Part shown: piece by piece, positions 3,544 to 60,284 of the stretch
Layout of the letters: every line of letters starts with the position of its first letter
Position numbering within the stretch: position 1 is the first letter of the stretch
From: Pseudobdellovibrionaceae bacterium
GTDB lineage: Bacteria > Bdellovibrionota > Bdellovibrionia > Bdellovibrionales > UBA1609
Length of the DNA: 64,000 nt
Assembly: GCA_023898385.1 (NCBI GenBank)
Contig: CP060220.1
Coordinates: 1,228,993 to 1,292,992, forward strand
Direction: 5' to 3'
Notes under the pieces: generated by a model
What the model saw: the letters and a program-made list of their open reading frames with translations, nothing else
The model's database searches: none
Told to the model about the DNA's origin: nothing
Made by a program: the position numbers and the translations under genes

Positions 3544-4065
3544 ATGTCAAATGATTCATCGTTAAAGATAAGCAACTTTCTTGATTCTCCACTTGAGTCA
3601 GGCGTGCAAATTTTAGCAGCGGAATACTATATACCTGTTTTTTGGCTGGCAATGTTCACCACAGAGGATTTAAAAACTTTTTGGGATATAGATAACGAAG
3701 TGGAAGTGCCATACTTAGCCACCACTGTTTCTCGCGCTATAAAAACTTTTGAACATAGAGTTTCAAATCTAAAAAAGATGTTCACAAATATCGACGACTA
3801 CATACCTGAGTGGACTCAACTACAGAAAAAAATGACTATGAATTATGTGTTGGTAGATTTAGATGATGTTCTAGAAATGGATGAGGATGGTAGAGAGCAA
3901 CTTTTGCCGGCACTTAAGGCCATAGACGAGCCTGATGTTGACAGTATGGTTGCTTTTGCGAAGCTGACATGTTTTTCAGATATCTTTGATCAATCCTCAG
4001 GGACACTCAATGAAGTACATAATCGGCCATCTGTAAAAGAGTATCTTTGTGGATTTGAAAGGTAA
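3544..4065 (+). CDS. hypothetical acidic cytoplasmic protein (173 aa)
   Basis: Track ORF 3538..4065. The ATG at 3544 has an AGGAG RBS about 7 nt upstream. I recognised no motif. Confidence 0.6.
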   Translation: MSNDSSLKISNFLDSPLESGVQILAAEYYIPVFWLAMFTTEDLKTFWDIDNEVEVPYLATTVSRAIKTFEHRVSNLKKMFTNIDDYIPEWTQLQKKMTMNYVLVDLDDVLEMDEDGREQLLPALKAIDEPDVDSMVAFAKLTCFSDIFDQSSGTLNEVHNRPSVKEYLCGFER

Positions 4066-5048: not shown

Positions 5049-5366
5049 ATGAAAGGGTCATATTGTCTAATGAAACTTTTTGGAAATATATTATTTGTCC
5101 TCTCAATAGTACTAACCGTAGCAACTATTTATACGGCACAAGTTTCTTCGAACGGTTGTGATAATGTAGCCATGTTGAGTTTATTATTATTTTTGGCTAT
5201 ATTCTTTGCGACTATAGGAGCTGTATTTTTGTTTAAGTCCAGTAAAAAAAACTTGAGTCAGCGAATGGCTAAAGTTCTGCTCGTGGTTTTATTAGCTTCC
5301 TGGATGGGGGAAGGTGTTCAAATTTACCACCTTTCATCTGCAGCTATTGGGGATTGTTATGAATAA
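5049..5366 (+). CDS. small integral membrane protein
   Basis: 105-aa ORF with three hydrophobic helices. Confidence 0.5.
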   Translation: MKGSYCLMKLFGNILFVLSIVLTVATIYTAQVSSNGCDNVAMLSLLLFLAIFFATIGAVFLFKSSKKNLSQRMAKVLLVVLLASWMGEGVQIYHLSSAAIGDCYE

Positions 5367-6755: not shown

Positions 6756-6770
6756 ATCCTACCTCCATTT

Positions 6771-6822
6771 ATAAGGCAAAATGCCTTATGTTGCAAGTTC
6801 TTTTTAAGGCAAAATGCCTTAT
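6771..6822. promoter_or_regulatory. two copies of palindrome TAAGGCA-AAA-TGCCTTA (TA operator) overlapping a sigma-70-like promoter
   Basis: 6771-6789 ataaggcaaaatgccttat and 6805-6822 taaggcaaaatgccttat. On the minus strand, TTGCAA-N17-TATAAA brackets copy 1, followed by a GGAGG RBS and the ATG at 6755. Confidence 0.55.
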
Positions 6823-7166
6823 TTTTAAAAATGTGCCGTGAAAAGTTAATAGGTCAATAGAAGAGAGGATGATTTCTAACTGAGTGAGTTCGGGCAAAGA
6901 CCTATACTCACCATACTCACTTTACTCACCTTTTTTGTGAACTATCATGAAAAAGGATGAATGAAAGTGAAATTGAAAAATGTCTGAAAGCCCTTTAAAT
7001 ACTGCTATCTAGCGGAAACCCTTAGGTTTTTAAAAATCGTTAAATATGCCTCGGGTAGTTCGGGCATTTTCGGTCGGTCCTGCTGCAATTGGGTAGTTTT
7101 AAATTGGAAAAATCAAGTGGGCCCACTCGCGGCCCCATTTTTGATGTGCTGAACTATAAACCGGCA

Positions 7167-7358
7167 TTAAGCAATCTTTTTCTTCAAGGCCTTAATTTCC
7201 TTCTCCAACTTATCCAAACGGCTCTCCTCTGCCTTTTTTCTAATGAGGGCCTCTTTGAGTAACTTATTTAAAAGAGTTTGATATGGCGCACCGGTGATAT
7301 TGGGATTTAAAATTCGGCAGCGTCTGGATGCGGATATACTCAGTGAGAGTACATCCAC
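7167..7358 (-). pseudogene. possible BrnA/CopG-like antitoxin remnant
   Basis: The 63-aa ORF contains GAPYQTLLNKLLKEAL, which resembles the C-terminal GxPYQTLI motif of BrnA-type antitoxins. The N-terminal part and a partner toxin are missing. Confidence 0.3.
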
Positions 7359-7723
7359 CAGATAATAAAAATGCTGGTCAGGTGATGCACCATTTGATCT
7401 AAACCAAAAGCATTCCAGTAGCCCGGCTTAGATTTGTCGTCAAAACGCCCGAGATAGCGGGGCCCAGATTTGATTCGGTCCATAATAAAATGCACCACAA
7501 AATCCACTAGGCTCAACCACCACAAGTGCGGCGTGTAGTACAACAATATGGCCAGGGCTAATAATCCATGCACGGCACAGTGAACCGTGAGAGGGAGAAA
7601 AAAATCCCAACCCGGCAACACTTTTTTAAGCATGTATTCACGCTGTAGAGGAAAATCACCTACAAAGTGTTTTATTTGAAATAGAATTAAGAGTAAAAAC
7701 AAGGTCTCAATGCTGATCGTCAT
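7340..7723 (-). CDS. DUF3307-family membrane protein
   Basis: LLILFQIKHFVGDFPLQ...VHCAVHG...HFIMDRIK...MVHHL: His-rich TM pattern typical of DUF3307. Confidence 0.65.
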   Translation of the reverse strand: MTISIETLFLLLILFQIKHFVGDFPLQREYMLKKVLPGWDFFLPLTVHCAVHGLLALAILLYYTPHLWWLSLVDFVVHFIMDRIKSGPRYLGRFDDKSKPGYWNAFGLDQMVHHLTSIFIIWWMYSH

Positions 7724-7843
7724 GAATCCATCCCGTTCATTTTTTTATTGTCCCCCGATGCTGCCGTCTGGCACAAATAAAATTGTTAGATTTCAAGACT
7801 TTGTGCTTGGAAGTCGAACAAACAACCAAAGGCCCACACAACA

Positions 7844-8581
7844 ATGAAAACCACAAACCAGCGCGAAAACCCCTTTATCAATCTGCTTTTTAATATAGTT
7901 TTGCCTGTGGCTTTACTTAACCAACTGACCAAACGCCTGGGGGAAGATGGTCCGTTGATTGCCCTCCTTGTGGCTCTTGCTTTTCCCATAGGCTATGGCG
8001 CCTACGACTATTTAACGCGTCACAAAAAGAACTACATCTCCCTCCTTGGAGTGATTAACGTGCTGTTCACTGGTGGATTGGCACTGATGAGCCTTGAAGG
8101 CATTTGGTTTGCGGTGAAAGAAGCGGCCTTCCCCTTGATTTTGGGAATTGGAGTCTACTTGTCCGCCTACACCCGCCGACCGTTTATGCGATTTATGGTG
8201 ACCAATGAAAACGTGATGAATTTTGACTTGGTCACAGCCCGCCTTGAAGAAAAAAACCACCAACCGCAGTTTGATCAACACATCCGAACTTCAACTAAAC
8301 TCTTAGCCACTTCATTTTTTCTCAGCAGCCTGCTTAACTTTTTTTTGGCTCGGTCTATCTTTGTCGATATTGATCCCGCCTTGTCGACCCTTGAGAGAAG
8401 TACCGTACTTAACGAGCAAATCGCCGATATGACTTGGCGAAGTTTTATTGTGATCGTGTTGCCACTGATGGTGTTTATGGCCTTTGTGGGGTGGCATTTG
8501 ATATCGGGAATTAAGAAACTCACCGACCTTGAAATTGATGACATCATGCCGCATGTGGCCGAGAAAAAGCCCACAGCATAG
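7844..8581 (+). CDS. multi-pass inner-membrane protein, function unknown
   Basis: 245-aa ORF with about 6 hydrophobic helices. The antisense ORFs inside it (8012..8574) are judged spurious. Confidence 0.7.
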   Translation: MKTTNQRENPFINLLFNIVLPVALLNQLTKRLGEDGPLIALLVALAFPIGYGAYDYLTRHKKNYISLLGVINVLFTGGLALMSLEGIWFAVKEAAFPLILGIGVYLSAYTRRPFMRFMVTNENVMNFDLVTARLEEKNHQPQFDQHIRTSTKLLATSFFLSSLLNFFLARSIFVDIDPALSTLERSTVLNEQIADMTWRSFIVIVLPLMVFMAFVGWHLISGIKKLTDLEIDDIMPHVAEKKPTA

Positions 8582-12880: not shown

Positions 12881-13001
12881 AGAAATCTCCGCCTATCTAG
12901 GGTATAAAAGCGCAGTATTATTATTTAATTCTTTGACCCAGACAACTGCAAAGGCGAATATATAGAAAATATTGGTAAGTCCTTTAAATAATTGGTTATT
13001 T

Positions 13002-14351
13002 ATGAAGCTGAATCCGTCTAACATCGGCATTATCAAGCGATTATTGGTGGGCCGAAACAACCGACCCCTGCGATCCATCCTTAATCGCCTGGAACCGGCG
13101 GACATTGCCTCACTGTTTAACACGCTCAATCAAAGGGAGCAGAAGCAACTTATCCACGCCCTGATCACCCTCGGTAAATCCAGTGAAGTGCTGGTGGAGC
13201 TCCCTGAAACACGCCTAGAAGACCTTTTAGAATCTCTGGACATCACCACCTTTGAACAAATACTTGAAGAAGCTCCCATTGATGATGCCGCTTATTTTGT
13301 GGGACTGACGGCTGAGGAAAAACACGAATCTCTGTTAAACCTTTTACCTATCAAAAAGCAGACGAAAATTCGGCAGTACCTGGCCTACCCCGAAGACTCT
13401 GCCGGCCGAATTATGCAAACAAAGGTCTTTAGTTTGCCAGTTCGACTCAACGCCAGTGAGGGTTTGGCGGAGTTAAGAAGCCGCGCCCAAGAGGAATCGA
13501 TCTATTATATCTATTGTGTAGACGAAGATGAACGCCTTGTGGGTGTGGTATCGCTTCGGGCCATGGCCACCGCACCTTCAGAAAAGCCTCTGGTGGAGTT
13601 GATTAAAAAAGATGTGATTACGGTTTCACCCATGGATGATGCTGAGGACGTGGCAAAGATGGTGGCCCACTATGACTTTATTGCCCTTCCTGTTTTGGAT
13701 AAACAACATCGACTGCTCGGCATTGTCACCGTGGATGATGTGGTCGACATCATTCAAGAGTTAGCCACAGCCAACATTTATGCCCAAGCCGGTCTACAAG
13801 AGGACGACCGCGTTTACACACCCGCCTTACAAAGTATTAAAAACCGAATTCCTTGGATGTTTTTAAACCTTTTCTTGGCTGGCCTAGCCAGTGCGGTAAT
13901 TGACTCTTATGAAGAGACCATGAAGCACCTCATTGTACTGGCCACAGTAAAAAACATTGTGCCTGCTCTTGGCGGAAATACGGCCATTCAAACCTTAACC
14001 GTAGTCACTCGAGGTCTGGCCACCGGGGACTTCAGCTTTATCAGCTATGCTAAAGCGGTGACGAAGGAAGCCACTGTGGGCCTCACCATTGGTGTATTTA
14101 CAGGACTGGGCGCTGGCACATTACTTTATTTATGGAAAGGCGACACCCTTGTCTCTGTGGTCATTTTCATTGCCATGGTTCTTAACTCGTTTTTGGCAGC
14201 CATTGCGGGGTCTATTGTGCCCATTCTGCTTAAGCGCTTTAACCTTGACCCAGCCACGGGGAGCGGTGTGCTTGTAACAATGATCACCGACATTTTTGGT
14301 TTCTTTGCCTTTTTAGGAATTGCCACACTTGGCCTAAAATACATGAGCTAG
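13002..14351 (+). CDS. mgtE: magnesium transporter MgtE
   Basis: MgtE N-domain, two CBS motifs (LVGVVSLRAM, LLGIVTVDDVVD) and a C-terminal channel (GGNTAIQTLTVVTRGLATG...DIFGFFAFLG). Start is uncertain: the track gives 12972, the ATG is at 13002. Confidence 0.9.
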   Translation: MKLNPSNIGIIKRLLVGRNNRPLRSILNRLEPADIASLFNTLNQREQKQLIHALITLGKSSEVLVELPETRLEDLLESLDITTFEQILEEAPIDDAAYFVGLTAEEKHESLLNLLPIKKQTKIRQYLAYPEDSAGRIMQTKVFSLPVRLNASEGLAELRSRAQEESIYYIYCVDEDERLVGVVSLRAMATAPSEKPLVELIKKDVITVSPMDDAEDVAKMVAHYDFIALPVLDKQHRLLGIVTVDDVVDIIQELATANIYAQAGLQEDDRVYTPALQSIKNRIPWMFLNLFLAGLASAVIDSYEETMKHLIVLATVKNIVPALGGNTAIQTLTVVTRGLATGDFSFISYAKAVTKEATVGLTIGVFTGLGAGTLLYLWKGDTLVSVVIFIAMVLNSFLAAIAGSIVPILLKRFNLDPATGSGVLVTMITDIFGFFAFLGIATLGLKYMS

Positions 14352-14357
14352 CCGAAA

Positions 14358-14753
14358 ATGAAAATCTCACCCAAAGAATTAAATTTTACTTTTTCAAAAA
14401 GCTCGGGTGCCGGCGGACAAAACGTAAATAAGGTCAACACCAAGGTCACATTGCGCTGGAATATCTTTGAATCCTCTAGTGTTTCACAAAAAGTGATTGA
14501 CCGATTTTGCGAGCTCTTTCCCAATAAGATCCTTGATGACGGCACAGTGCAGATTTCAAGCCAGCGCTATCGCCTGCAAGCTCGCAACATTGCCGACTGC
14601 GTAGAAAAATTGCACGTCATGATAGAGAAAGCCGCGCGCCCCAAAAAGCCGCGAAGGCCCACCAAACCCACAACCTCTTCTGTGGAAAAGCGGCTCAAAG
14701 GAAAACGATTACAAAGCGATAAGAAACGCCAACGACAAGGACGAGACGACTAG
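14358..14753 (+). CDS. arfB: alternative ribosome-rescue factor ArfB (peptidyl-tRNA hydrolase, GGQ)
   Basis: SGAGGQNVNKVNTKVTLRW GGQ motif plus a basic C-terminal tail (KKPRRPTKP...KRLKGKRLQSDKKRQRQ). Confidence 0.9.
   Translation: MKISPKELNFTFSKSSGAGGQNVNKVNTKVTLRWNIFESSSVSQKVIDRFCELFPNKILDDGTVQISSQRYRLQARNIADCVEKLHVMIEKAARPKKPRRPTKPTTSSVEKRLKGKRLQSDKKRQRQGRDD
14706..14743 (+). repeat. direct repeat, left copy (arfB 3' end)
   Basis: cgattacaaagcgataagaaacgccaacgacaaggacg. It matches 16271-16308 at 37 of 38 positions, and weaker similarity continues for about 10 nt. Confidence 0.9.
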
Positions 14754-14833
14754 CTCCTGGATAATTTGGTTTTGGCAAATCCAGCGAGTAAATTTCATTA
14801 TTTTGGATAAATTTGTCAAAAAATGTTACATAT

Positions 14834-14876
14834 TGACATGTTTGTCCTTTCCGATTACCATGGGACAAACATGTCA
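14834..14876. promoter_or_regulatory. perfect 14-bp inverted repeat (candidate AbiEi operator) overlapping a TTGACA-N17-TACCAT promoter
   Basis: tgacatgtttgtcc (14834-14847) and ggacaaacatgtca (14863-14876), with a 15-nt spacer, directly upstream of the abiEi start. Confidence 0.55.
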
Positions 14877-14890
14877 GAAATCATAAAGGG

Positions 14891-15508
14891 GTGACAATAT
14901 TGTCATTTAGAGAGTTGAAGTCTATCTTAGAAAAAGAGTTGGTCATTAGTGCAAAAGATGCTTCCACAGTTTTAGGGGACCGGAAAAGAGTCTATGCTTT
15001 GCAGGACAAAGGTGACCTTAAAAGATGTGGCACGGGTCTTTATACCTTGCCTGGGATAGAAGAAGGAACTGCACAATTTGCTGCCCTAAATAAATACTTT
15101 CCAAAGTGTGTAGTTTCCGGAGTGACGGCCCTCTCTCTTTGTGGGTTGGGCCAAGAGTATCTGGATAAGATACACGTGGATATTCCTAATACTACGAATT
15201 TATCTAACTCTCTACTCGAAGTTCACCGAGTGACTGCAAAGCGGATAAGTCATGTAGAAAACAGAAAATTTGAAGAAAAAGGCATACCCTTTAAGATTAA
15301 AGTCTACTCACCTGAGCGGACACTGTTTGAGGCCTACAAGTACTATGGCGTTGGGACAGATGCATTTATACGGGCCATTAAAAACTATCGAAATCTTTAT
15401 TTAAATAAAAAATCACCTGGCAAACAGTACGATGTTATTTTGAGTATAGACAAAGAAGTGGGAAGGGAACTGGTTAATTTTTTGAGCATGGGAGATATCA
15501 ATGGATGA
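14891..15508 (+). CDS. abiEi: AbiEi-like antitoxin / transcriptional regulator (type IV TA)
   Basis: N-terminal wHTH pattern VISAKDASTVLGDRKRVYALQDKGDLKRCGTGLYTLPG. About 205 aa, as in the short AbiEi (COG5340) class. It overlaps the next gene by 8 nt. Confidence 0.7.
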   Translation: MTILSFRELKSILEKELVISAKDASTVLGDRKRVYALQDKGDLKRCGTGLYTLPGIEEGTAQFAALNKYFPKCVVSGVTALSLCGLGQEYLDKIHVDIPNTTNLSNSLLEVHRVTAKRISHVENRKFEEKGIPFKIKVYSPERTLFEAYKYYGVGTDAFIRAIKNYRNLYLNKKSPGKQYDVILSIDKEVGRELVNFLSMGDING

Positions 15509-16259
15509 GACCTCTCTTTTATCTCAATTTGAGAAATGGAAGAAGGAGCACGATCAACATGGTCGCATGGCCTTCTCTCGCTTTATCATGCTGACTTTTT
15601 TAGACGGCCTCGAAAAAGTCAGCGACGACTTCATTTTTAAGGGAGGAAATCTTCTGTGGCACTACATTCAAACACCGAGAGCTACGGTAGATCTCGATCT
15701 ATCGACCATAACTTTAAAATCTCATTTGGAGATTAAGCAATGCCTTGAACAGTCCTTTGCTATTCACAAAGAAATTCAATTTTCTATAAAAGAGTTTAGA
15801 ACCATTCATGATGAGGAAGAAATTGGTGCGGCCATTACTATCACTTATCAGACATATCATGGACAAAAAAATCAATTTGAAATAGATATCGTTTATACAT
15901 TGCCAACAGATTTGGTCAAAATAAAATCGACTGTTAGTGATAGAAGTTTAACTTCGGCAAGTATAGAAAATATTATTGCTGATAAAGTCAATGCGGCCCA
16001 CAGATTCGCGGGTGGCAACACCCGCATGAAAGATTTTGATGATTTGTGGAGAATTTCAAAATCAGATATTAGAATTAATAAAAGTAAGGTCAATAGGCTT
16101 TTCAAAAAAAGAGTGATTCCTTTCTCATTGGAGGGAACTTGGGTAGAAAATTTAAATCATGCCTGGAAAGGACATGTGAAAAGGTACAAAGACTTGCCAA
16201 GTGACATTTTAGTAATATTCGAAGATATCAATTCTTGGCTAAAAGGCTTAAAGAAATGA
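15501..16259 (+). CDS. abiEii: AbiEii/AbiGii-family nucleotidyltransferase toxin (DUF1814)
   Basis: FIFKGGNLLWHYIQTPRATVDLDL is the signature KGG...R.T.DLD nucleotidyltransferase motif. 252 aa. Confidence 0.75.
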   Translation: MDETSLLSQFEKWKKEHDQHGRMAFSRFIMLTFLDGLEKVSDDFIFKGGNLLWHYIQTPRATVDLDLSTITLKSHLEIKQCLEQSFAIHKEIQFSIKEFRTIHDEEEIGAAITITYQTYHGQKNQFEIDIVYTLPTDLVKIKSTVSDRSLTSASIENIIADKVNAAHRFAGGNTRMKDFDDLWRISKSDIRINKSKVNRLFKKRVIPFSLEGTWVENLNHAWKGHVKRYKDLPSDILVIFEDINSWLKGLKK

Positions 16260-16270
16260 AGGTTGGGCAG

Positions 16271-16308
16271 CGATTGCAAAGCGATAAGAAACGCCAACGA
16301 CAAGGACG
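16271..16308 (+). repeat. direct repeat, right copy (duplicate of arfB 3' end)
   Basis: cgattgcaaagcgataagaaacgccaacgacaaggacg. In the arfB frame it would read RLQSDKKRQRQGRDYWSRPLAN*. Confidence 0.9.
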
Positions 16309-16495
16309 TGATTACTGGTCTAGGCCTTTGGCGAATTGAATCGCTTTTGTGAACAGAAAATCGCCGCCGCACGTCAGGTGTCTTGCCCAATAGACCCATG
16401 CCACAGCAAAACCCTTAAACTCCACTTCAATGACCTTCGTCTTGTTTATGTTTTTGTTGTATAATCCGATAAGTGAGCACAGAGGTCATCAGAGA

Positions 16496-17521
16496 ATGGA
16501 CAGTCGGTACCTTAAAAATTTAGAATTGCGACGATTGGTTGAGAAAATCGAAACCGCTTCGTCTATTCTTCTCACCACCCACAAACAGTGTGACGGTGAT
16601 GGTTTAGGTGCCATGCTCGGGCTCTATCATGCCCTTAGAAAGTTAGATAAGAAGGTTCGGGTTATCACGGTTGACGGAGTTCCGGCTAAATATCGATTTC
16701 TGCAACCGGAACTGCACTTACAAAATTTTGACAAACCTCACGACCCCATTGAACCCACAGACCTTTGCCTTATCTTCGACACAAATGACAGGCGCCTTGT
16801 GGATCCCTTATTTTTCGAGCTTGAGAAACAATGCAAGCAGATTGCCTTCGTCGACCATCACCCAGTTTTAAATAAAGGCCCTGAACCCACTCCTGGATCG
16901 TACATAGATACATCAGCCGCAAGCACCGGCGAAATCGCCTTTTTTATAATAAAAGCCTTAGGCATTCGAATGGATCAAATGATTGCCCGCGCCCTCTACA
17001 CGAGCATCGCCTTTGACACGCAAATATTTAGGTATGTTAAAAACTCTCCCTCGAGCCATTTGATTGCAGCAGAACTGCTTGAACATGAGAAAAATGCTTA
17101 TTCGGTACATCGATTTTTATTTGCGACTTACACACAAGAAAAAATCGCCTTTCTTGGTAAAGTGCTCAGCGAAGTGGAGTACTTTGCCGAGGGTCAAGTG
17201 GCTGTGGTCAAAGTGAGCCTCTCTGACTTGAAAGATCATGACTTAGATATGGATGATTCTCGTGACGTTATTGATATGATTATGAACATCAACGCCTTGC
17301 AAGTGGCGGCCTTATTTCGTGAAGATGCCCCGAATGAGTACAAACTCAGCTTACGCAGTAAAGGCAGCATTGAAGTTTTAGGCATTGCTGAAAGCTTTGG
17401 CGGTGGTGGTCATATGTTTGCTTCTGGAGCTCCCCTACAGGGACAATATGAAGACTTAAAACTGAAGCTTGTGAACCAATTTTTAAAACGTCTTAACGGT
17501 ACCACCAAAGCTAAAAGCTAA
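16496..17521 (+). CDS. nrnA: DHH-family phosphoesterase NrnA (oligoribonuclease / pAp phosphatase)
   Basis: HKQCDGDGLGA, FVDHHP (DHH) and GGGGHMFASG (DHHA1) motifs. The ATG at 16496 (MDSRYLKN) is preferred over the track start. Confidence 0.85.
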   Translation: MDSRYLKNLELRRLVEKIETASSILLTTHKQCDGDGLGAMLGLYHALRKLDKKVRVITVDGVPAKYRFLQPELHLQNFDKPHDPIEPTDLCLIFDTNDRRLVDPLFFELEKQCKQIAFVDHHPVLNKGPEPTPGSYIDTSAASTGEIAFFIIKALGIRMDQMIARALYTSIAFDTQIFRYVKNSPSSHLIAAELLEHEKNAYSVHRFLFATYTQEKIAFLGKVLSEVEYFAEGQVAVVKVSLSDLKDHDLDMDDSRDVIDMIMNINALQVAALFREDAPNEYKLSLRSKGSIEVLGIAESFGGGGHMFASGAPLQGQYEDLKLKLVNQFLKRLNGTTKAKS

Positions 17522-45416: not shown

Positions 45417-45783
45417 GTTAGCAATGGCAGGCAATCGCCTGATCTCTCGGGATCAGGAGGAAAGTCCGGACTCCGCATGGCAACACAGGGGGTAACGCCC
45501 CTCCACCGTAAGGTGAGGACCAGTGGAACAGAAAGAATGTCCAGAGCTATGATCCTTTAGCCGGGAACGGGAGGCTTTAGGGGAGCTGCTGGAGTGAAAA
45601 CAGCTAAACTCTGTGTGGAGCAAGATCAAATAGGAAAGTGCTTGAGTGCGGCCAGCACAAGCTTTCGGGTAGATCGCTAAAGACATCAGGCAACTGAGGT
45701 CGTAGAGGAATGATTGCCCCAATCTCAAGATTCTCCAGGGCTTGAGATTGAGACAGAATCCGGCTTACAGCCACTGCTAATAT
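45417..45783 (+). ncRNA. rnpB: RNase P RNA, bacterial type A
   Basis: Plus-strand conserved blocks GAGGAAAGTCCGGACTCC, GGTAACGCCC, ACAGAAAGAATG, AGTGAAAAC, GCAAGATCAAATAGG, GGGTAGATCGCT, TAGAGGAATGATTGCC and ACAGAATCCGGCTTAC. P1 pairing joins TTAGCAATGGC (5') with GCCACTGCTAA (3'). Ends are +/- 5 nt. Confidence 0.9.
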
Positions 45784-50585: not shown

Positions 50586-50800
50586 GGGGCGGCCATTAAA
50601 CCCTGAAAACTAAAACTGGGTTTTTTCCTAACATAGCAGCAAAATAGGGTCCAATGAGACCAGGGACAATGAAAAGGAATTACTTGGGTTTATGGATTTA
50701 AATCAGACAACACGAACCTCCCCACGAAATCAGCGCCCCTATTTGTCATCCGTTCGTGTGAACCCTATTCACAACAGACAAACAAAGTGCAAAGCCAAAA

Positions 50801-50967
50801 GGTGACGGCCGGATTTGAACCTCTCGAGAACGCGTCAAAAAGCCAAAGGCTTTTTGACGTGGCCCGTGGTCGAGAGAACGAAGCGAGCCTTGCGAGCGCA
50901 GGGCTCGGAAACCAACAGGGTTCGGCTCCTGTCGAACCCTCCAAATAAAAATGGCCCCAATGGGGCC
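50801..50967 (-). repeat. R1: decayed tRNA-Cys 3'-end core (50801-50821) plus a 146-nt hairpin-rich arm
   Basis: About 95% identical by eye to 51893-52063. The core ggtgacggccggatttgaacc matches the tRNA-Cys copy at 60220-60240 at 20 of 21 positions. Confidence 0.8.
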
Positions 50968-50968
50968 G

Positions 50969-51115
50969 CTTGAGTTTGTCCTAACCTCCCTGAAAAGCCG
51001 TAAACGGCATCGTGGGGCAACGAATATCCCTCAGCTCTACTTTCGCCTCAAGGCAAGCAAAGAGCCTAATCTGCCCACAATCAGAAGAGTTGTCTTTAAT
51101 TGTTCAAGCCCTTAA
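50969..51115 (+). pseudogene. truncated copy of gene X (homologue of 60472..61011)
   Basis: Translates to LEFVLTSLKSRKRHRGATNIPQLYFRLKASKEPNLPTIRRVVFNCSSP*. Compare X residues 26-73, LEFILRHLMDRKRHRETTNVPQLYFKLKAQDEPNLPPLWHFKEVFSLL. It starts immediately after R1 and lacks both the N- and C-terminal parts. Confidence 0.7.
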
Positions 51116-51172
51116 GGACAGCCTCAAAATAACGCCTTGACAATCGTACCAATATAAGGGTACACTGATCTC

Positions 51173-51526
51173 GTGAAATTAGAGGCCCGATTTTTTCAGA
51201 CATCATCAGGAGCCGAGCCCACTCGCACTTTCTTAAAGAAGTTAGCGAAGAAAGACCGTGCTCAAGTAGGAGCATTGATTCGCAAGCTTCAAGTAGAGCA
51301 TTATTTGGAGGCCCCTCACGGAAAAAATCTTGGTGGTGGCCTTTGGGAAATTCGAGCTATAACAGAAGGCGGAAAAATCCGGGTCTTTTATTGTTTTGTT
51401 GGTAAGAAATATGTGGTGTTGCTTCACGCAATTTTAAAGAAGACTCCGAAGACACCCAAAAAAGACATGGATCTTGCTCGTAAACGAAAAAAAATAGTGG
51501 AGGATGACTATGGCAACAAAAAATAA
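51173..51526 (+). CDS. RelE/ParE-superfamily toxin (phage Gp49 / HigB-like)
   Basis: GTG start. FLKKLAKKDRAQVGALIRKLQ...LGGGLWEIRAITEGGKIRVFYCFVGKKYVVLLHAILKKTPKTPKKDMDLARKR is the Gp49-family pattern. Confidence 0.75.
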   Translation: MKLEARFFQTSSGAEPTRTFLKKLAKKDRAQVGALIRKLQVEHYLEAPHGKNLGGGLWEIRAITEGGKIRVFYCFVGKKYVVLLHAILKKTPKTPKKDMDLARKRKKIVEDDYGNKK

Positions 51527-51830
51527 AAAATCGCCTTTGGGTTCTTCATTCGATGAATGGTTAGATGACGAACTTAAAGACGAAGAATTTCAAGAGCACT
51601 TTGACAGTTATAAGGGGCAGCTTGATCTTGGCAATAAGCTTAAAAGCATTGCAGAAGAGCAAGGCTACTCTGTCCGAGGGCTTGCAAAAGCAATGGGCAC
51701 AAGCCCCTCTCAAGTGCAAAGAATGTTTTCTATCACAGCAACGAAATGTACCCTTGAAACCTTAATGAAGTTTTCTGTGATTACAGGCGTTGACCTTCAT
51801 CAAATTTTAAAGACTAAGAAAGCTTCTTAG
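51504..51830 (+). CDS. XRE-family HTH antitoxin
   Basis: Overlaps the toxin by 23 nt. HTH: GYSVRGLAKAMGTSPSQVQRMF. Confidence 0.75.
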   Translation: MTMATKNKKSPLGSSFDEWLDDELKDEEFQEHFDSYKGQLDLGNKLKSIAEEQGYSVRGLAKAMGTSPSQVQRMFSITATKCTLETLMKFSVITGVDLHQILKTKKAS

Positions 51831-51892
51831 AACCGTATAGATCAAAAAAAAAAGGGGGGGGTACCAACAGTTAAGTGAGAATAGCCTTTATT

Positions 51893-52063
51893 TGGAGGCG
51901 GCGGCCGGATTTGACCCTCTCGAGAACGCGGCAAAAAGCCAAAGGCTTTTTGACGTGGCTCGTGGTCGAGAGAACGAAGCGAGCCTTGCGAGCGCCGGGC
52001 TCGGAGACCAACAGGGTTCGACTCCTGTCGAACCCTCCAAATAAAAATGGCCCCAATGGGGCC
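51893..52063 (-). repeat. R2: tRNA-Cys 3'-end core (51893-51917) plus hairpin-rich arm, adjacent to the integrase gene
   Basis: The core tggaggcggcggccggatttgaccc matches 60216-60240 at 23 of 25 positions. The arm matches R1. Confidence 0.8.
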
Positions 52064-52079
52064 CTTTTTTATTTGGAGG
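52034..52079 (-). terminator. long (~20 bp) bidirectional hairpin downstream of int
   Basis: CCTCCAAATAAAAAtGGCCCCaatGGGGCCcTTTTTTATTTGGAGG. Confidence 0.6.
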
Positions 52080-52145
52080 TGAGGTAGCAAGTCCAATTAT
52101 TACCACTACTTGCCAGCCTCATCCACCACGAATCCGCCAGGCAGG

Positions 52146-53291
52146 TCATTTTTGACTCCTATTGAAGAGTTCAACGACCCGTCCCATAGTTTCCTTTCCA
52201 CTGAGGAGCTTGAGGCCCTTGGTGGCTCCCTGAACCTCGATCCCAGCCAACCTGATATATCGCTGCATGGTCTTGAGATCCTTCCAACCACAGATTTTCA
52301 TAACTACGGCTGGAGCTACTCCATCCCGAATGAGCTGGGTGGCAAAGCAGGCTCTCAGGGTGTGAAATTTCACTGAAGGGATACCAGCTCCTTCACAAAA
52401 TTTGCGAAGAATCTGCGCTTGCCTGCCGTCTTTCCAAGACTGATACCTGGGGAGAACAAACTCCCCATGCCTCCGTTTGGTTTTCAGCTCCTTGAGCAAA
52501 CCTAAAACTTGGCTGCCATCAATGGGAACAGTTCGCCAGTATCTCCCCTTGGTTGGGCCAAAGCCATCCTTGTTTGTCCAATTTCGATGGACATAAATGA
52601 CGTTGTTGTCAAAATCCACTTGGTTCCATTGAAGAGCGTAGAGTTCGCCACTTCTCATCCCAGTGAACAAGGCAACAGCCCAAACGGGATACCAGCCATG
52701 ATTGATTTTGAAGGCATACTCCAAGAGGGTTCTAATCTCGGTGAGGTTCAAAATCTCAGGGAGTTTTTCCTCTTCTTTTCGAGTGGACTTGTATCCATCG
52801 GTAGGAATGTAACTGATTCCTTTTACAGTTCCTGAAAGAATGGCCCACTTGAACACAGAATCAATAGCTGTTCGCAATCGCTTGCGGCGACTCACTGAAA
52901 TTTCACGCTCCACTTCATCAAGAGCTGACCAGGCATCTGCCTTGTCAATTTCCTTCACTGGCTTTTCTGCCCAGTGACCAACAAAGCGAGTGAGCACGGA
53001 CCTGTATTCCTCAATCGTACCCTCTGAAATAGACCTTGAGTGCAGCCTGTCCTCTCTCGCTGACAATTCCCAACGGCCAACAAGATCCTTCCACAGAACA
53101 CCTCGATGTTCTAATCTCGATACTTCTTGCTGAGCCGTTCTCAAAAGCTGCTTGCTAATGCGTTTGGCATCTTGCTTAGTTTTTATTCCTGATCTTGACC
53201 GTTCAATACGAATCGTAGGATCGTATTGGCTGCGAACTGACTCACGCACTTGATATAATTTTTGACCTTGTTTTTCATATTCTCTAATCAT
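52146..53291 (-). CDS. int: tyrosine-type site-specific integrase
   Basis: 381 aa. The C-terminal catalytic region has ...FTGMRSGELYAL... (R), ...FHTLRACFATQLI (H-x-x-R) and ...LKTMQRYIRL (Y). Confidence 0.9.
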   Translation of the reverse strand: MIREYEKQGQKLYQVRESVRSQYDPTIRIERSRSGIKTKQDAKRISKQLLRTAQQEVSRLEHRGVLWKDLVGRWELSAREDRLHSRSISEGTIEEYRSVLTRFVGHWAEKPVKEIDKADAWSALDEVEREISVSRRKRLRTAIDSVFKWAILSGTVKGISYIPTDGYKSTRKEEEKLPEILNLTEIRTLLEYAFKINHGWYPVWAVALFTGMRSGELYALQWNQVDFDNNVIYVHRNWTNKDGFGPTKGRYWRTVPIDGSQVLGLLKELKTKRRHGEFVLPRYQSWKDGRQAQILRKFCEGAGIPSVKFHTLRACFATQLIRDGVAPAVVMKICGWKDLKTMQRYIRLAGIEVQGATKGLKLLSGKETMGRVVELFNRSQK

Positions 53292-53569
53292 CGAAAACCT
53301 CCATTTCGTGAGGCTTCAATCAGTCGGTCAAGATCGACACGTTTGAAAAGTAACTTACGTCCACTTCTGTATTGAGGTAGATCGCCACGGCGAGCTTTGG
53401 CCCGAACACTGGCAACCGTTGACCTCATATATACTGCGGCTTCAGTGGCAGTAAGATACTTTTGGTTACTGATTAAGTTGTCAAAGAGCACTGCTGATTT
53501 CAGCTCTCTTCTTTTACTACGAACTCTTTGTAAATCATTGTTTTTTTTCATTGGAACCTCTCTTTTCAC
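53288..53569 (-). CDS. xis: excisionase / AlpA-type HTH DNA-binding protein
   Basis: YLTATEAAVYMRSTVASVRAKARRGDLPQYRSGRKLLFKRVDLDRLI matches the excisionase-family HTH pattern. It overlaps the int start by 4 nt. Confidence 0.75.
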   Translation of the reverse strand: MKREVPMKKNNDLQRVRSKRRELKSAVLFDNLISNQKYLTATEAAVYMRSTVASVRAKARRGDLPQYRSGRKLLFKRVDLDRLIEASRNGGFR

Positions 53570-58107: not shown

Positions 58108-59996
58108 ATTACCGAGTAGCCGAGGCAGCTGGCATTACCACCAGCCCCTCAGCCCTCACCGAACCGTACGTACGCGTTCACGTATACGGCTCTCCCAGAT
58201 TAAAGCAAGCTACCTTGCTTGTGGTCGAGATGATTGGGTATCACACCTATAGGCTTTATAGGTCTCCATATGGTCTTGGCTACCTTCGTCAGTTTGCGCC
58301 ACGGCACCGGGCGACCGCCTCTCCGGTACTTCCGCTTGAGGTACTGGTAGATTTGGCGGCGTACGGAATGGAGTTCTCGGTAAATGATGCTGTTGCCGTT
58401 CGAATACCGAAAGTAATTGCACCAGCCTCGCCATACCGATTGCACCACATCCCGCGCCTCATTCATTGTAAGATGAACGTGGAGCTTCTCCTTGAGACTG
58501 GCCTTCAAACTGCGACGGGCCTTTTCTGATGGTTGCCTAGCAATCCAAAATCGCTCAGGGTTATCAGTGAAGGCCCGAAGGTGAATCTTAAACCCCAGAA
58601 AATCAAACTTCGATTGATGGCTACGCCGTTCATTGGTCATATCCACCTCTCGAGTCTTACTCTCTTTGAGACTAAGTTCTCCCTCGCGCATCCATATGTA
58701 TAAAAATCTTCGAGCCGTCTTGAGTTCAGCCTGCGTTTTTGCTGTAATCACAAAATCATCAGCATAACGGAATAGCTTCACCCTAGAGCTTTGCCCATAG
58801 ACTTCCATAAATCTTTCATCAAGCACATGGTGGAGGTAAACGTTGGCTAGCAATGGCGACAGCGGCCCCCCTTGCGGGGTCCCTTTACCACTGGGCTGCC
58901 AAGGCTTACCGGGCTCCTGAAAACCTGACTTAAGCATCTGGCTGATCAACCGGAGAATTCGGGGATCACAGATCTCTCTTGTCAGCATTTTTAAGAGTTT
59001 ATTGTGACTGACTTGATCGAAGAACTTCTCGATGTCAGCCTCCAAGATGTGTCGATGGCGGTAGACTTGTTGAGCCACTTTGGCTACACAATCTACCGCT
59101 TTCCTATGCGGCCGAAACCCATAGGAACAATCATGAAACCTTTGCTCGTAAACCACCTCCAATAGCAGTACGAGCACCCGTTGGACCACGCGGTCCTCCA
59201 GGTTAGGAATACCCAAAGGCCTTTGCTCCCCATTGCTTTTGGGGATGTAAGTGCGTTTGACCGGACCCGGTTGATAAGTCCTCACTCTGAGTCGCTCACT
59301 CAGATCTTTCACGAAATCCCATTCCTTGCCCTTAACCGACACTACGGTAACTTGGTCAAGACCCGCGCTACCGCGGTTCTTAATCACCAACTCTAGCGCA
59401 TCAGCCAGGAGGTATGGGTCTGTAAGATAGCGATATAGATCCCACTGCTTACGACCTTTCTTTGCATGCTCGGCCACCCGGATCCGAATGTGTCTTGTTT
59501 GTGGGCTAAGGGACATGTACTTCCTAGCCCCGGTTGGATGTTGGTTCATCTCAAGATCCTCATTACATACACAATTGCAAATCCAAGTTCCTTCTGGACC
59601 TGACAACCCCTTCCTCTGACTTCGTCCGTTGAGTCTCGACAGGTTTCCTTGTCTTCGTGAGTACTATGGGTGTCTCTGACTTCTTTTACGACACCTGATT
59701 GGAGCTTATTGACTTCACTCCTTTGGTTGTGAAGGCTTCAACCTCCTCCACTGTCTTAAAAGATCTCTCCGGTTAACTTCTATGACTCTCATTCACCCGC
59801 CCCCAGCCAGTGACAAGGATGCTGCCGTGAGGGCAAACCCAGAGTTCTCCCGCACAGTCTTGCCTTCTACGTCGCCAACCGCTTGGGCCTAGCATCGTCT
59901 TCCCAGCGAGATGAGAGCTTCGAAGGAGCGAGGCTCATCGAAGCCGCCTTATTAGCTGTTCACTTGTGTTGAGGCTGATGAATGTTACTTGCGCAC
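58108..59996 (-). mobile_element. group II intron (~1.9 kb, endonuclease-less, compact, class C-like size)
   Basis: 5' end GTGCGC at 59996 (GUGYG). Domain V at 58161-58192 is GAGCCGTATACGTGAACGCGTACGTACGGTTC, with the AGC triad. Domain VI has a bulged A at 58117, 9 nt before a ...AAT end. The RT ORF sits in domain IV. Ends are +/- a few nt. Confidence 0.8.
58200..59549 (-). CDS. group II intron reverse transcriptase/maturase (no HNH/En domain)
   Basis: Start MNQHPTG. RT motifs RPLGIPNLEDRVVQ, LEADIEKFFDQVSH, GTPQGGPLSPLLANVYL and RYADDFVI. Maturase X region WRGWCNYFRYSN. It ends shortly after domain X. Confidence 0.9.
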   Translation of the reverse strand: MNQHPTGARKYMSLSPQTRHIRIRVAEHAKKGRKQWDLYRYLTDPYLLADALELVIKNRGSAGLDQVTVVSVKGKEWDFVKDLSERLRVRTYQPGPVKRTYIPKSNGEQRPLGIPNLEDRVVQRVLVLLLEVVYEQRFHDCSYGFRPHRKAVDCVAKVAQQVYRHRHILEADIEKFFDQVSHNKLLKMLTREICDPRILRLISQMLKSGFQEPGKPWQPSGKGTPQGGPLSPLLANVYLHHVLDERFMEVYGQSSRVKLFRYADDFVITAKTQAELKTARRFLYIWMREGELSLKESKTREVDMTNERRSHQSKFDFLGFKIHLRAFTDNPERFWIARQPSEKARRSLKASLKEKLHVHLTMNEARDVVQSVWRGWCNYFRYSNGNSIIYRELHSVRRQIYQYLKRKYRRGGRPVPWRKLTKVAKTIWRPIKPIGVIPNHLDHKQGSLL

Positions 59997-60215: not shown

Positions 60216-60284
60216 TGGAGGTGGCGGCCGGATTTGAACCGGCGTACACGGATTTGCAGTCCACTGCCTAGCCACTCACAGGGC
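60216..60284 (-). pseudogene. tRNA-Cys(GCA) lacking the 5' acceptor strand (att site / truncated gene)
   Basis: The minus strand reads ...GCCCtgtgagtggctAGGCaGTGGActGCAaaTCCGTgtacGCCGGttcaaatCCGGCcgccaccTCCA. The D-arm, anticodon arm (GCA), T-arm, U73 discriminator and CCA are present. The 7 nt that should pair with CGCCACC read tcaattt. Confidence 0.75.

Follow-up and report, generated by a model that had tools for sequence, protein, structure and literature searches.

The 3′ end of arfB, the gene for the alternative ribosome-rescue peptidyl-tRNA hydrolase, is occupied in a Pseudobdellovibrionaceae bacterium (NCBI GenBank assembly GCA_023898385.1, contig CP060220.1) by a 1.5-kb AbiE toxin-antitoxin cassette that lies between two copies of the arfB tail. 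The stretch of DNA analysed here, referred to as the window, comprises 64,000 nucleotides (nt) of that contig (positions 1,228,993 to 1,292,992 of the forward strand) and supplies the numbering used throughout. Judged from its sequence, the cassette entered the arfB 3′ end as a discrete insertion, acquired horizontally; one copy of the repeat forms the end of the intact arfB, and the other is a displaced fragment of the gene. A discrete insertion had been proposed in the initial annotation of the window, and it is supported by the foreign composition of the cassette, by a close copy in a different setting, by an analogous cassette in the tail of another protein gene, and by a terminator-like hairpin that only the right repeat copy forms. 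With slightly more confidence than doubt, the segment 14754-16270 can be regarded as an AbiE operon (type IV toxin-antitoxin/abortive infection) brought into the arfB 3′ end by Campbell-type, tyrosine-integrase-like recombination, that is, as an integrase-less islet flanked by attachment (att) sites, of the type represented by the cis-mobilizable elements (CIMEs). (CIMEs are elements without integration and transfer genes that keep attL and attR; PMC5704250, PMC6323972.) The att role of the repeats, the identity of the recombinase, the order of events and any present mobility belong to this reconstruction, and we infer them from the pattern set out below. The parts of the locus on which the argument turns are the following.

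14358..14753, + strand: arfB, intact, encoding a protein of 131 amino acids (aa) with a GGQ motif (NCBIfam, Pfam)
14706..14751, + strand: left copy of the direct repeat, attL-like (repeat search), with a 31-nt perfect core at 14713-14743
14754..14804, + strand: 51-nt stretch that separates the arfB stop from the conserved cassette, absent from the alignment with L011, the closest relative of the cassette
14805..14905, + strand: abiE promoter/operator, conserved in L011
14891..15508, + strand: abiEi, predicted antitoxin/transcriptional repressor (PADLOC AbiEi, 8.3e-24; gene calls in public assemblies)
15501..16259, + strand: abiEii, predicted DUF1814 nucleotidyltransferase toxin of 252 aa (PF08843, 1.6e-20; PADLOC, 3e-24)
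16271..16316, + strand: right copy of the direct repeat, attR-like (repeat search), 11 nt past the abiEii stop, a displaced arfB 3′ fragment

The two copies of the direct repeat extend over 46 nt each, with 42 of 46 positions matching (91 % identity) and a start-to-start spacing of 1565. Within them lies a core of 31 nt without mismatch (14713-14743 = 16278-16308), and the sole mismatch of the initial 38 nt is A14711/G16276. The initial annotation had described a 38-nt repeat with one mismatch and a weaker continuation, and the repeat is recovered in this somewhat longer form. Its designation of 14706-14743 as the last 38 nt of arfB needs correction: the gene's stop codon occupies 14751-14753, and it is only the repeat's weak continuation that reaches it. 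The left copy holds the last 15 codons of arfB and the stop, with similarity to the right copy ending at the TAG (14751-14753). The right copy reads, as had been noted, in the arfB frame with an alternative C-terminus; it ends in …RLQSDKKRQRQGRDYWSRPLAN and a stop (GRDYWSRPLAN-stop), and the intact arfB ends in …GRDD-stop.

With up to 3 mismatches allowed, the 64-kb window contains the 31-nt core at exactly two places, and none of 100 dinucleotide shuffles gives a match. A scan of 241 million metagenome records with a 28-nt core matched a single contig, which is the same arfB-abiE locus, already filled, and the viral contigs of IMG/VR gave no match to the core. These results dispose of the suspicion that the repeat might be a common dispersed sequence, which had been named beforehand as an outcome that would tell against an insertion. 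Upstream of the 46-nt repeat, similarity may continue for ~26 nt more (14678-14703 against 16232-16256, with a 12-nt indel), reaching the last abiEii codons (…SWLKGLKK-stop); support for this extension is marginal (31/2000 shuffles). An ArfB-like translation that tblastn shows 5′ of the right copy, with 43 % over 60 aa, is not accepted: 15 identical residues carry its score, and a stop codon lies inside it.

Between the repeats, abiEi and abiEii are the sole coding content, with 137 nt on the arfB side and 11 nt on the right side. The repeats had been said to bracket this gene pair and its promoter/operator and nothing more, and that description holds, as do the identities first given to ArfB, AbiEi, AbiEii and the NrnA-like protein encoded downstream. 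The accompanying statement that no recombinase is present is correct for the space between the repeats and incorrect for the window, which has a tyrosine integrase at 52146-53291.

As far as its sequence tells, the operon is regular for an AbiE system, though divergent. The two genes form an overlapping bicistron (abiEii overlaps abiEi by 8 nt), and the same pairing is found in 50+ related loci. AbiEii is a DUF1814, Pol-beta-type nucleotidyltransferase (NTase) with motifs I-IV, whose signatures are hG[GS]…DhD plus an Arg, a Lys for motif III, and +DxxD: its residues G48 G49, R60, D64-L-D66, K162 and K177-D-F-D-D181, which correspond to the NTase motifs as defined for AbiE (Dy et al. 2014, PMC3985639), are invariant across 31 aligned members of the clade described below. 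The nearest solved structure is that of AbiGII (PDB 9hlo), at only E = 3e-8. AbiEi comprises 205 aa from a GTG start, or 202 aa from a TTG at 14900, and has no Pfam or NCBIfam match. Ahead of the operon a sigma-70-like promoter is predicted (TTGACA at 14833, then 17 nt, then TACCAT to 14861). It is overlapped by a perfect 14-nt inverted repeat (14834-14847 / 14863-14876) that is conserved in L011; a second palindrome, TGACAATATTGTCA (14892-14905), spans the abiEi start codon.

The cassette stands apart from its surroundings in composition. Its GC content is 0.376 (within the lowest 9 % of 1.5-kb windows), as compared with 0.465 for arfB and 0.475 for the upstream gene mgtE. GC at third codon positions (GC3) is 0.374 in abiEi and 0.356 in abiEii, as compared with 0.508 in arfB, 0.511 in mgtE and 0.442 in the downstream gene nrnA. 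The closest relative of the cassette among 5.8 billion proteins, L011, is located on an ENA contig and has 86 % nucleotide identity to window positions 14805-16088, a shared span that runs from the operator through three quarters of abiEii. L011 lies 3′ of a flavin reductase gene, with an integrase fragment and NikA-like, HicB, reverse transcriptase and IS21 sequences around it, and its context contains no arfB sequence. Metagenomic sequences yielded roughly 285 AbiEii hits. No cassette relatives were found among viral contigs, and none among plasmids. At positions 4700-5037 of L011, abiEii is cut at about residue 195, and the N-terminal portion of another AbiEii-family gene is fused to it. 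(The contig was assembled from long reads at 2x and seems to contain frameshifts; the junction could be a real recombinant or an assembly error.)

The surroundings of the two repeat copies bear on the question of which of them is the original gene end, and bring in three further features.

12972..14351, + strand: mgtE, Mg2+ transporter, upstream neighbour of arfB (Pfam MgtE_N/CBS/MgtE)
16274..16351, + strand: hairpin in which the right repeat copy is paired with its downstream flank, followed by UUUUGUG (RNA fold; inverted repeat)
16496..17521, + strand: nrnA-like gene for a DHH/DHHA1 phosphoesterase, downstream neighbour (Pfam, NCBIfam)

The right-copy hairpin has a folding energy of -25.4 kcal/mol and z = -3.3, with none of 200 shuffles equally stable, whereas the left copy and its flank give z = -0.7; the hairpin probably represents the terminator native to arfB. 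Such pairing with the flank is confined to the right copy, which fits that copy being the original arfB end in its native context. (The 51 nt at 14754-14804, which follow the present arfB stop, contain a weak CTGGAT...ATCCAG hairpin with a fold no better than that of shuffles.) ArfB proteins of the group mostly end in an aromatic residue (…EY, …DY, …RY or …DF before the stop; generally ...(D/E/K)Y). The right copy retains GRDY but has TGG at the expected stop position, the left copy has GRDD-TAG, and each of them is one substitution away from GRDY-stop. On this comparison the left ending looks like a mimic of the native ending, supplied by the element. The gene that it completes is in good order: ArfB matches the NCBIfam equivalog NF006718 with 135.8 bits (cut-off 100) and Pfam RF-1 with 7e-18. 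The mgtE stop codon precedes the arfB start by 6 nt, and 180 nt separate the right repeat copy from the nrnA-like gene.

Operons of the same AbiE clade recur in related bacteria. When each GTDB species, represented by one genome, was scanned with a profile, 56 loci (L022-L077) were found, all of them in metagenome-assembled genomes of the Bdellovibrionota/Oligoflexia type and nearly all with the abiEi-abiEii pair. Every one of the 18 flanking tRNA or tmRNA genes called by ARAGORN aims its 3′ end at the cassette (binomial p = 3.8e-6), 13 of them within 2.5 kb, and this uniform orientation is a signature of integrase-type island cargo. An array at tRNA-Arg(tct) in L063 presents the arrangement in full. 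It consists of the tRNA gene (7987-8063, - strand), a tyrosine integrase (6759-7802; PF00589, 1.8e-29) and abiEii-abiEi, and this 2.8-kb integrase-plus-abiE unit is closed at 5158-5179 by 22 nt that repeat the tRNA 3′ part exactly. A second islet in L063, of 1.5 kb and integrase-less, encodes a MarR-like protein of 165 aa and an unassigned protein of 233 aa, and ends with another tRNA fragment, at 3587-3665. In L044 and L071, too, integrases adjoin the cassette, and these are 35 % identical to the integrase of the window. This clade pattern, of tyrosine-integrase cargo (L063, L044, L071) at tRNA and tmRNA 3′ ends, does not support the notion, put forward in the initial annotation, of the toxin-antitoxin pair as a minimal mobile unit; the pair has neither a recombinase nor terminal inverted repeats. 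Many contigs of the clade end at the cassette or close to it, suggesting DNA that is repeated or varies between strains.

Bracketing repeats were sought in the 40-41 loci with both flanks readable, and a reversed-flank control gave none. Outside the window, L023, L036, L051, L063 and L035 each have a repeat of their own. L023 is a minimal abiE cassette enclosed by a repeat of 67 + 19 nt (94-95 % identity, split by an 11-nt indel; 5209-5307 / 6762-6849). What it duplicates is the 3′ end of a DUF2779 gene in convergent orientation, with similarity stopping exactly at the stop codon, and it leaves 80 nt before abiEi and 28 nt after abiEii. A repeat that ends at the stop codon of its target, in the window as in L023, is what would be expected of an element-borne site that restores a gene end, and not of a staggered-cut duplication. 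(A gene with a SocA/Panacea antitoxin domain lies upstream in L023.) The repeat of L036 (34 nt, 94 %) is located 40 nt beyond a tRNA-Gly gene, and that of L051 (22 nt) overlaps a tRNA-Gly 3′ end. In L035 (4386-7122) the 5′ part of a GNAT acetyltransferase gene is present twice (348 nt, 93 %), once on either side of the cassette; the C-terminal fragment of another abiEii precedes the cassette, which looks like a tandem or replaced-cassette structure. L027, L031 and L048 are weaker cases. In these predatory bacteria (Bdellovibrionota), the AbiE clade can thus be thought of as cargo of integrase elements at the 3′ ends of tRNA, tmRNA and protein genes.

A second toxin-antitoxin islet is present in the window itself, next to the tyrosine integrase already mentioned. 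A 168-nt direct repeat of 95 % identity (50800-50967 / 51896-52063) brackets a higBA-like pair, and the features of this region are as follows.

51173-51526: Gp49/HigB-like toxin gene
51504-51830: helix-turn-helix (HTH) antitoxin gene
52146-53291, - strand: tyrosine integrase (PF00589, 3.5e-23), 83 nt from the right copy of the 168-nt repeat
53288-53569: HTH_17 excisionase-like gene, after the integrase

The initial 25 nt of the 168-nt repeat look like a tRNA 3′ end in reverse complement; they recur at 60216-60240, where they adjoin a tRNA-Cys(GCA)-like remnant that has no ARAGORN call. The features at 50797-53569 and 60216-60284 are probably a tandem array of tRNA remnant, ~8-kb integrase element, att, higBA islet and att. 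The position of the higBA-like islet beside an integrase implies that this genome contains toxin-antitoxin islets, flanked by att sites, that stand in tandem with integrase elements, and excision of the integrase element alone from such an array would leave a structure like that at arfB. The integrase at 52146-53291 has itself been considered as mobiliser of the abiE cassette and set aside, its tRNA-like repeat being unrelated to the arfB core; tblastn with two integrases detected no other tyrosine recombinases in the window. A group II intron (Rfam RF00029, 58111-58194, - strand) lies inside the putative integrase element and adjoins a 468-aa reverse transcriptase-like open reading frame (58200-59606). 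Elsewhere in the window, at 45419-45783 (+ strand), is a bacterial RNase P RNA of class A.

The favoured reconstruction of the arfB locus runs as follows. A circular, element-borne site with a mimic of the arfB tail would recombine with the chromosomal arfB tail, the crossover falling inside the 31-nt core. The left copy would then consist of chromosomal arfB up to the core and, beyond it, of the ending supplied by the element (…GRDD-stop); the right copy would consist of the element-borne mimic up to the core and, beyond it, of the original arfB ending with its terminator hairpin. A companion integrase element may have integrated in tandem and later been excised, leaving the islet behind, or such an element may have moved the islet in trans or in cis. 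Once established, AbiEi would repress its own promoter by way of the inverted repeats and neutralise AbiEii, the nucleotidyltransferase, which would arrest growth upon phage infection or upon loss of the module; a toxin-antitoxin pair that is addictive in this sense would favour retention of the islet. AbiE stabilises mobile elements, or DNA carrying it (PMC3985639). The junctions that the reconstruction predicts for the empty site and for the excised element are these.

predicted attB (empty-site) junction: …GGAAAACGATTACAAAGCG…GGACGTGATTACTGGTCTAGG; full form GGCTCAAAGGAAAACGATTACAAAGCGATAAGAAACGCCAACGACAAGGACGTGATTACTGGTCTAGGCC
predicted attP (circle) junction: AAAGAAATGAAGGTTGGGCAGCGATTGCAAAGCGATAAGAAACGCCAACGACAAGGACGAGACGACTAGCTCCTGGATAA

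Several observations weigh against this account. In the 64-kb window no cognate integrase for the arfB core was identified, and there is no third copy of the core. The exact ArfB occurs in 12 public contigs, from at least 9 samples; every one of them is filled, with 100 % identity, and neither an empty site nor an excised circle is seen. Metagenomes that harbour the strain include ERZ27309274, ERZ795048, ERZ28655229, JGI 3300010350 and SRR14234113. Most of the 41 cassettes with readable flanks show no bracketing repeat. The islet is far smaller and cleaner than the CIMEs that have been described and has no room for an integrase remnant, so that simple decay of an island explains it poorly. Finally, arfB is missing at this locus in all syntenic relatives, so that a single insertion into a conserved gene is too simple a history for the site.

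Decay is nevertheless the content of the alternative that survives best, although it is unlikely: a larger island of integrase, abiE and further cargo at the arfB 3′ end would have eroded to the toxin-antitoxin pair, leaving the repeats as fossil att sites and the cassette immobile. L063 displays the intact tRNA-integrase-abiE-att form, toxin-antitoxin modules stabilise the DNA that carries them (PMC3985639), and the uniformity of the 12 contigs shows a cassette that is fixed. The borders are, however, very tight, which weakens this reading, with 11 nt from the abiEii stop to the right repeat and 51 nt unassigned on the other side, and those of L023 are equally tight (28 + 80 nt). Two independent deletions ending exactly at att borders are improbable unless the trimming was the work of site-specific recombination between tandem att sites, which is the favoured reconstruction itself.

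More doubtful is a generalisation according to which AbiE operons in Bdellovibrionota would circulate as minimal cassettes (promoter plus two genes, ~1.4-1.5 kb), each with a mimic of a host gene or tRNA end, and would be shuttled in trans by integrases into gene 3′ ends. If true, this would constitute an integron-like traffic of defence cassettes that has no attC sites and restores genes up to the stop codon.

It is very unlikely that the insertion was a RecA-dependent Campbell event, in which a circularised foreign fragment with ~40-65 nt of arfB-tail homology would have entered with no site-specific recombinase. Such an event has the same geometry as integrase-mediated insertion, and the imperfect edges around a perfect 31-nt core, together with the possible 26-nt extension, resemble diverged homologous sequence. 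The incoming DNA, however, would already have to carry an arfB tail beside abiE, and arfB adjoins none of the 56 other clade cassettes. RecA-dependent insertion also leaves unexplained the placement of the cassettes at tRNA/tmRNA 3′ ends in 18 of 18 cases, the adjacent integrases, and the stop of similarity at the stop codon in both protein-gene cases.

The derivation of the arfB locus itself has to be considered in this connection. No ArfB homologues are found between 61 and 100 % identity, and the next best, at 60 %, lacks synteny. Look-up of the exact NrnA adds one contig, which starts precisely at the 31-mer; this is a k-mer assembly break and uninformative. The syntenic relatives found by way of NrnA (67-73 % amino-acid identity) have the order S49 peptidase - AsmA-like - GreA - MgtE - NrnA - BFD. 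All six contigs, from five distinct relatives (loci L080-L086), lead from mgtE (or greA) directly to nrnA after ~134 nt with no arfB in between, and the position of arfB in the window is therefore itself derived. These relatives accordingly offer no arfB-nrnA empty site for the comparison that the initial annotation had suggested. The window MgtE ends in ...GLKYMS-stop, as against ...GLR(F/I)FGDF-stop in the syntenic relatives (C-terminal alignment), and the 40 nt 3′ of the right repeat weakly resemble the relatives' mgtE end (8-60/1000 shuffles in a restricted, post-hoc search). A relic of the mgtE 3′ end after the right copy is not claimed, the similarity being marginal in the restricted search and non-significant in an unrestricted one. 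Nested 3′-end insertions, of arfB into the mgtE tail and then of abiE into the arfB tail, may have taken place.

These findings are the substance of another alternative, in which arfB was part of the inserted block, either as arfB-abiEi-abiEii-arfB′ in one piece or through the nested insertions just described, possibly with functional coupling to the toxin. It draws on the arfB-less relatives and on the divergent MgtE C-terminus with its weak counterpart past the right repeat, and is highly improbable: GC and GC3 of arfB are host-like, unlike those of abiE, the mgtE similarity does not reach significance in the unrestricted search, and no other cassette of the clade stands beside arfB. Even if true, it would leave unchanged the reading of abiE as an insertion into the arfB tail. 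Since arfB is next to no other cassette, the adjacency of abiE to a ribosome-rescue gene is most likely incidental, and a functional arfB-abiE linkage is rejected on the same ground.

Hardly credible, finally, is the reading of the pair as a minimal unit of autonomous mobility, or as a non-autonomous transposon that a transposase mobilises, with the 38-46-nt repeat as target-site duplication: the cassette limits are tight, and two independent minimal cassettes (window and L023) have bracketing duplications, but there is no recombinase or transposase inside the cassette, there are no terminal inverted repeats (25 % of shuffles equal or surpass the best match between the ends), the copies differ at their edges instead of at random, in both cases the stop codon marks the end of the duplication, fitting restoration of a gene end and not a staggered cut, and duplications of 46-95 nt far exceed, to our knowledge, the target-site duplications of known transposases.

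The embedding of the cassette matches that of integrase-type islands at gene 3′ ends, and more precisely that of integrase-less att-flanked islets (CIMEs). With tyrosine-integrase islands it shares an imperfect repeat with an identical core, a restored gene end, foreign composition and a defence/toxin-antitoxin cargo; unlike them, it has no integrase between its repeats. With CIMEs it shares direct repeats made of a gene 3′ end, which are here putative att sites (the 46-nt imperfect repeat with its 31-nt identical core stands at both borders, and its geometry and gene-end content match those of att sites), a cassette without integrase or transfer genes, and a lineage in which integrase-bearing and integrase-less units form tandem arrays (L063 and the higBA islet of the window). 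It differs from them in being 1.5 kb long and a single operon, in its host phylum (Bdellovibrionota) and in its target, arfB. It also lacks decayed integration or transfer genes: remnants from integrative and conjugative elements (ICEs) or integrative and mobilizable elements (IMEs) are not found in its 51 + 11 unassigned nt, although L011 does adjoin an integrase fragment and a NikA-like gene. No cognate ICE or IME was identified, and in the 64-kb window no integrase element cognate to the same att is found. Tandem accretion at the att sites of ICEs and IMEs is reportedly exemplified by the ICESt1/ICESt3 family at the 3′ end of fda in Streptococcus thermophilus. One literature search gave no reports of arfB as an integration target.

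The operon resembles AbiE of Lactococcus lactis and Streptococcus agalactiae in its overlapping bicistron, in the DUF1814 NTase motifs I-IV and in the inverted repeats over its promoter (PMC3985639); the abiE operon of S. agalactiae, which has inverted repeats over the promoter, is autoregulated (PMC3985639). Unlike the known AbiE systems, the present clade is divergent, restricted to Bdellovibrionota and known here from sequence. A likeness to integron cassettes consists in the small one-operon unit with a repeat at its borders and, presumptively, a recombinase acting in trans; the differences are that there is no attC-type palindrome at both borders, no IntI and no array, that the operon has its own promoter, and that the repeats are gene ends. 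The cassette is accordingly not classed as an integron cassette: only the right copy forms a hairpin, and it does so with the chromosomal flank, and an IntI/attI platform is lacking from the window. A transposon or miniature inverted-repeat transposable element (MITE) is rejected as well, terminal inverted repeats not rising above the shuffle level and the duplication being imperfect and at least 46 nt long.

What the case adds to these known systems can be put briefly. The case illustrates how a defence/toxin-antitoxin operon can persist as the smallest possible islet between putative att sites, rebuilding the end of a gene of an essential pathway with no recombinase of its own. The clade pattern is of use in annotating defence islets of metagenome-assembled genomes, in which contigs often break at cassettes of this kind, and the arfB 3′ end becomes a candidate new protein-gene integration target. 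Current concepts are unchanged, and the islet is a fairly ordinary stranded or hitch-hiking one. It is distinct from known cases in being one operon long, in having no decayed integration genes, in its location at arfB, and in recurring as a minimal unit in the tail of at least one other protein gene.

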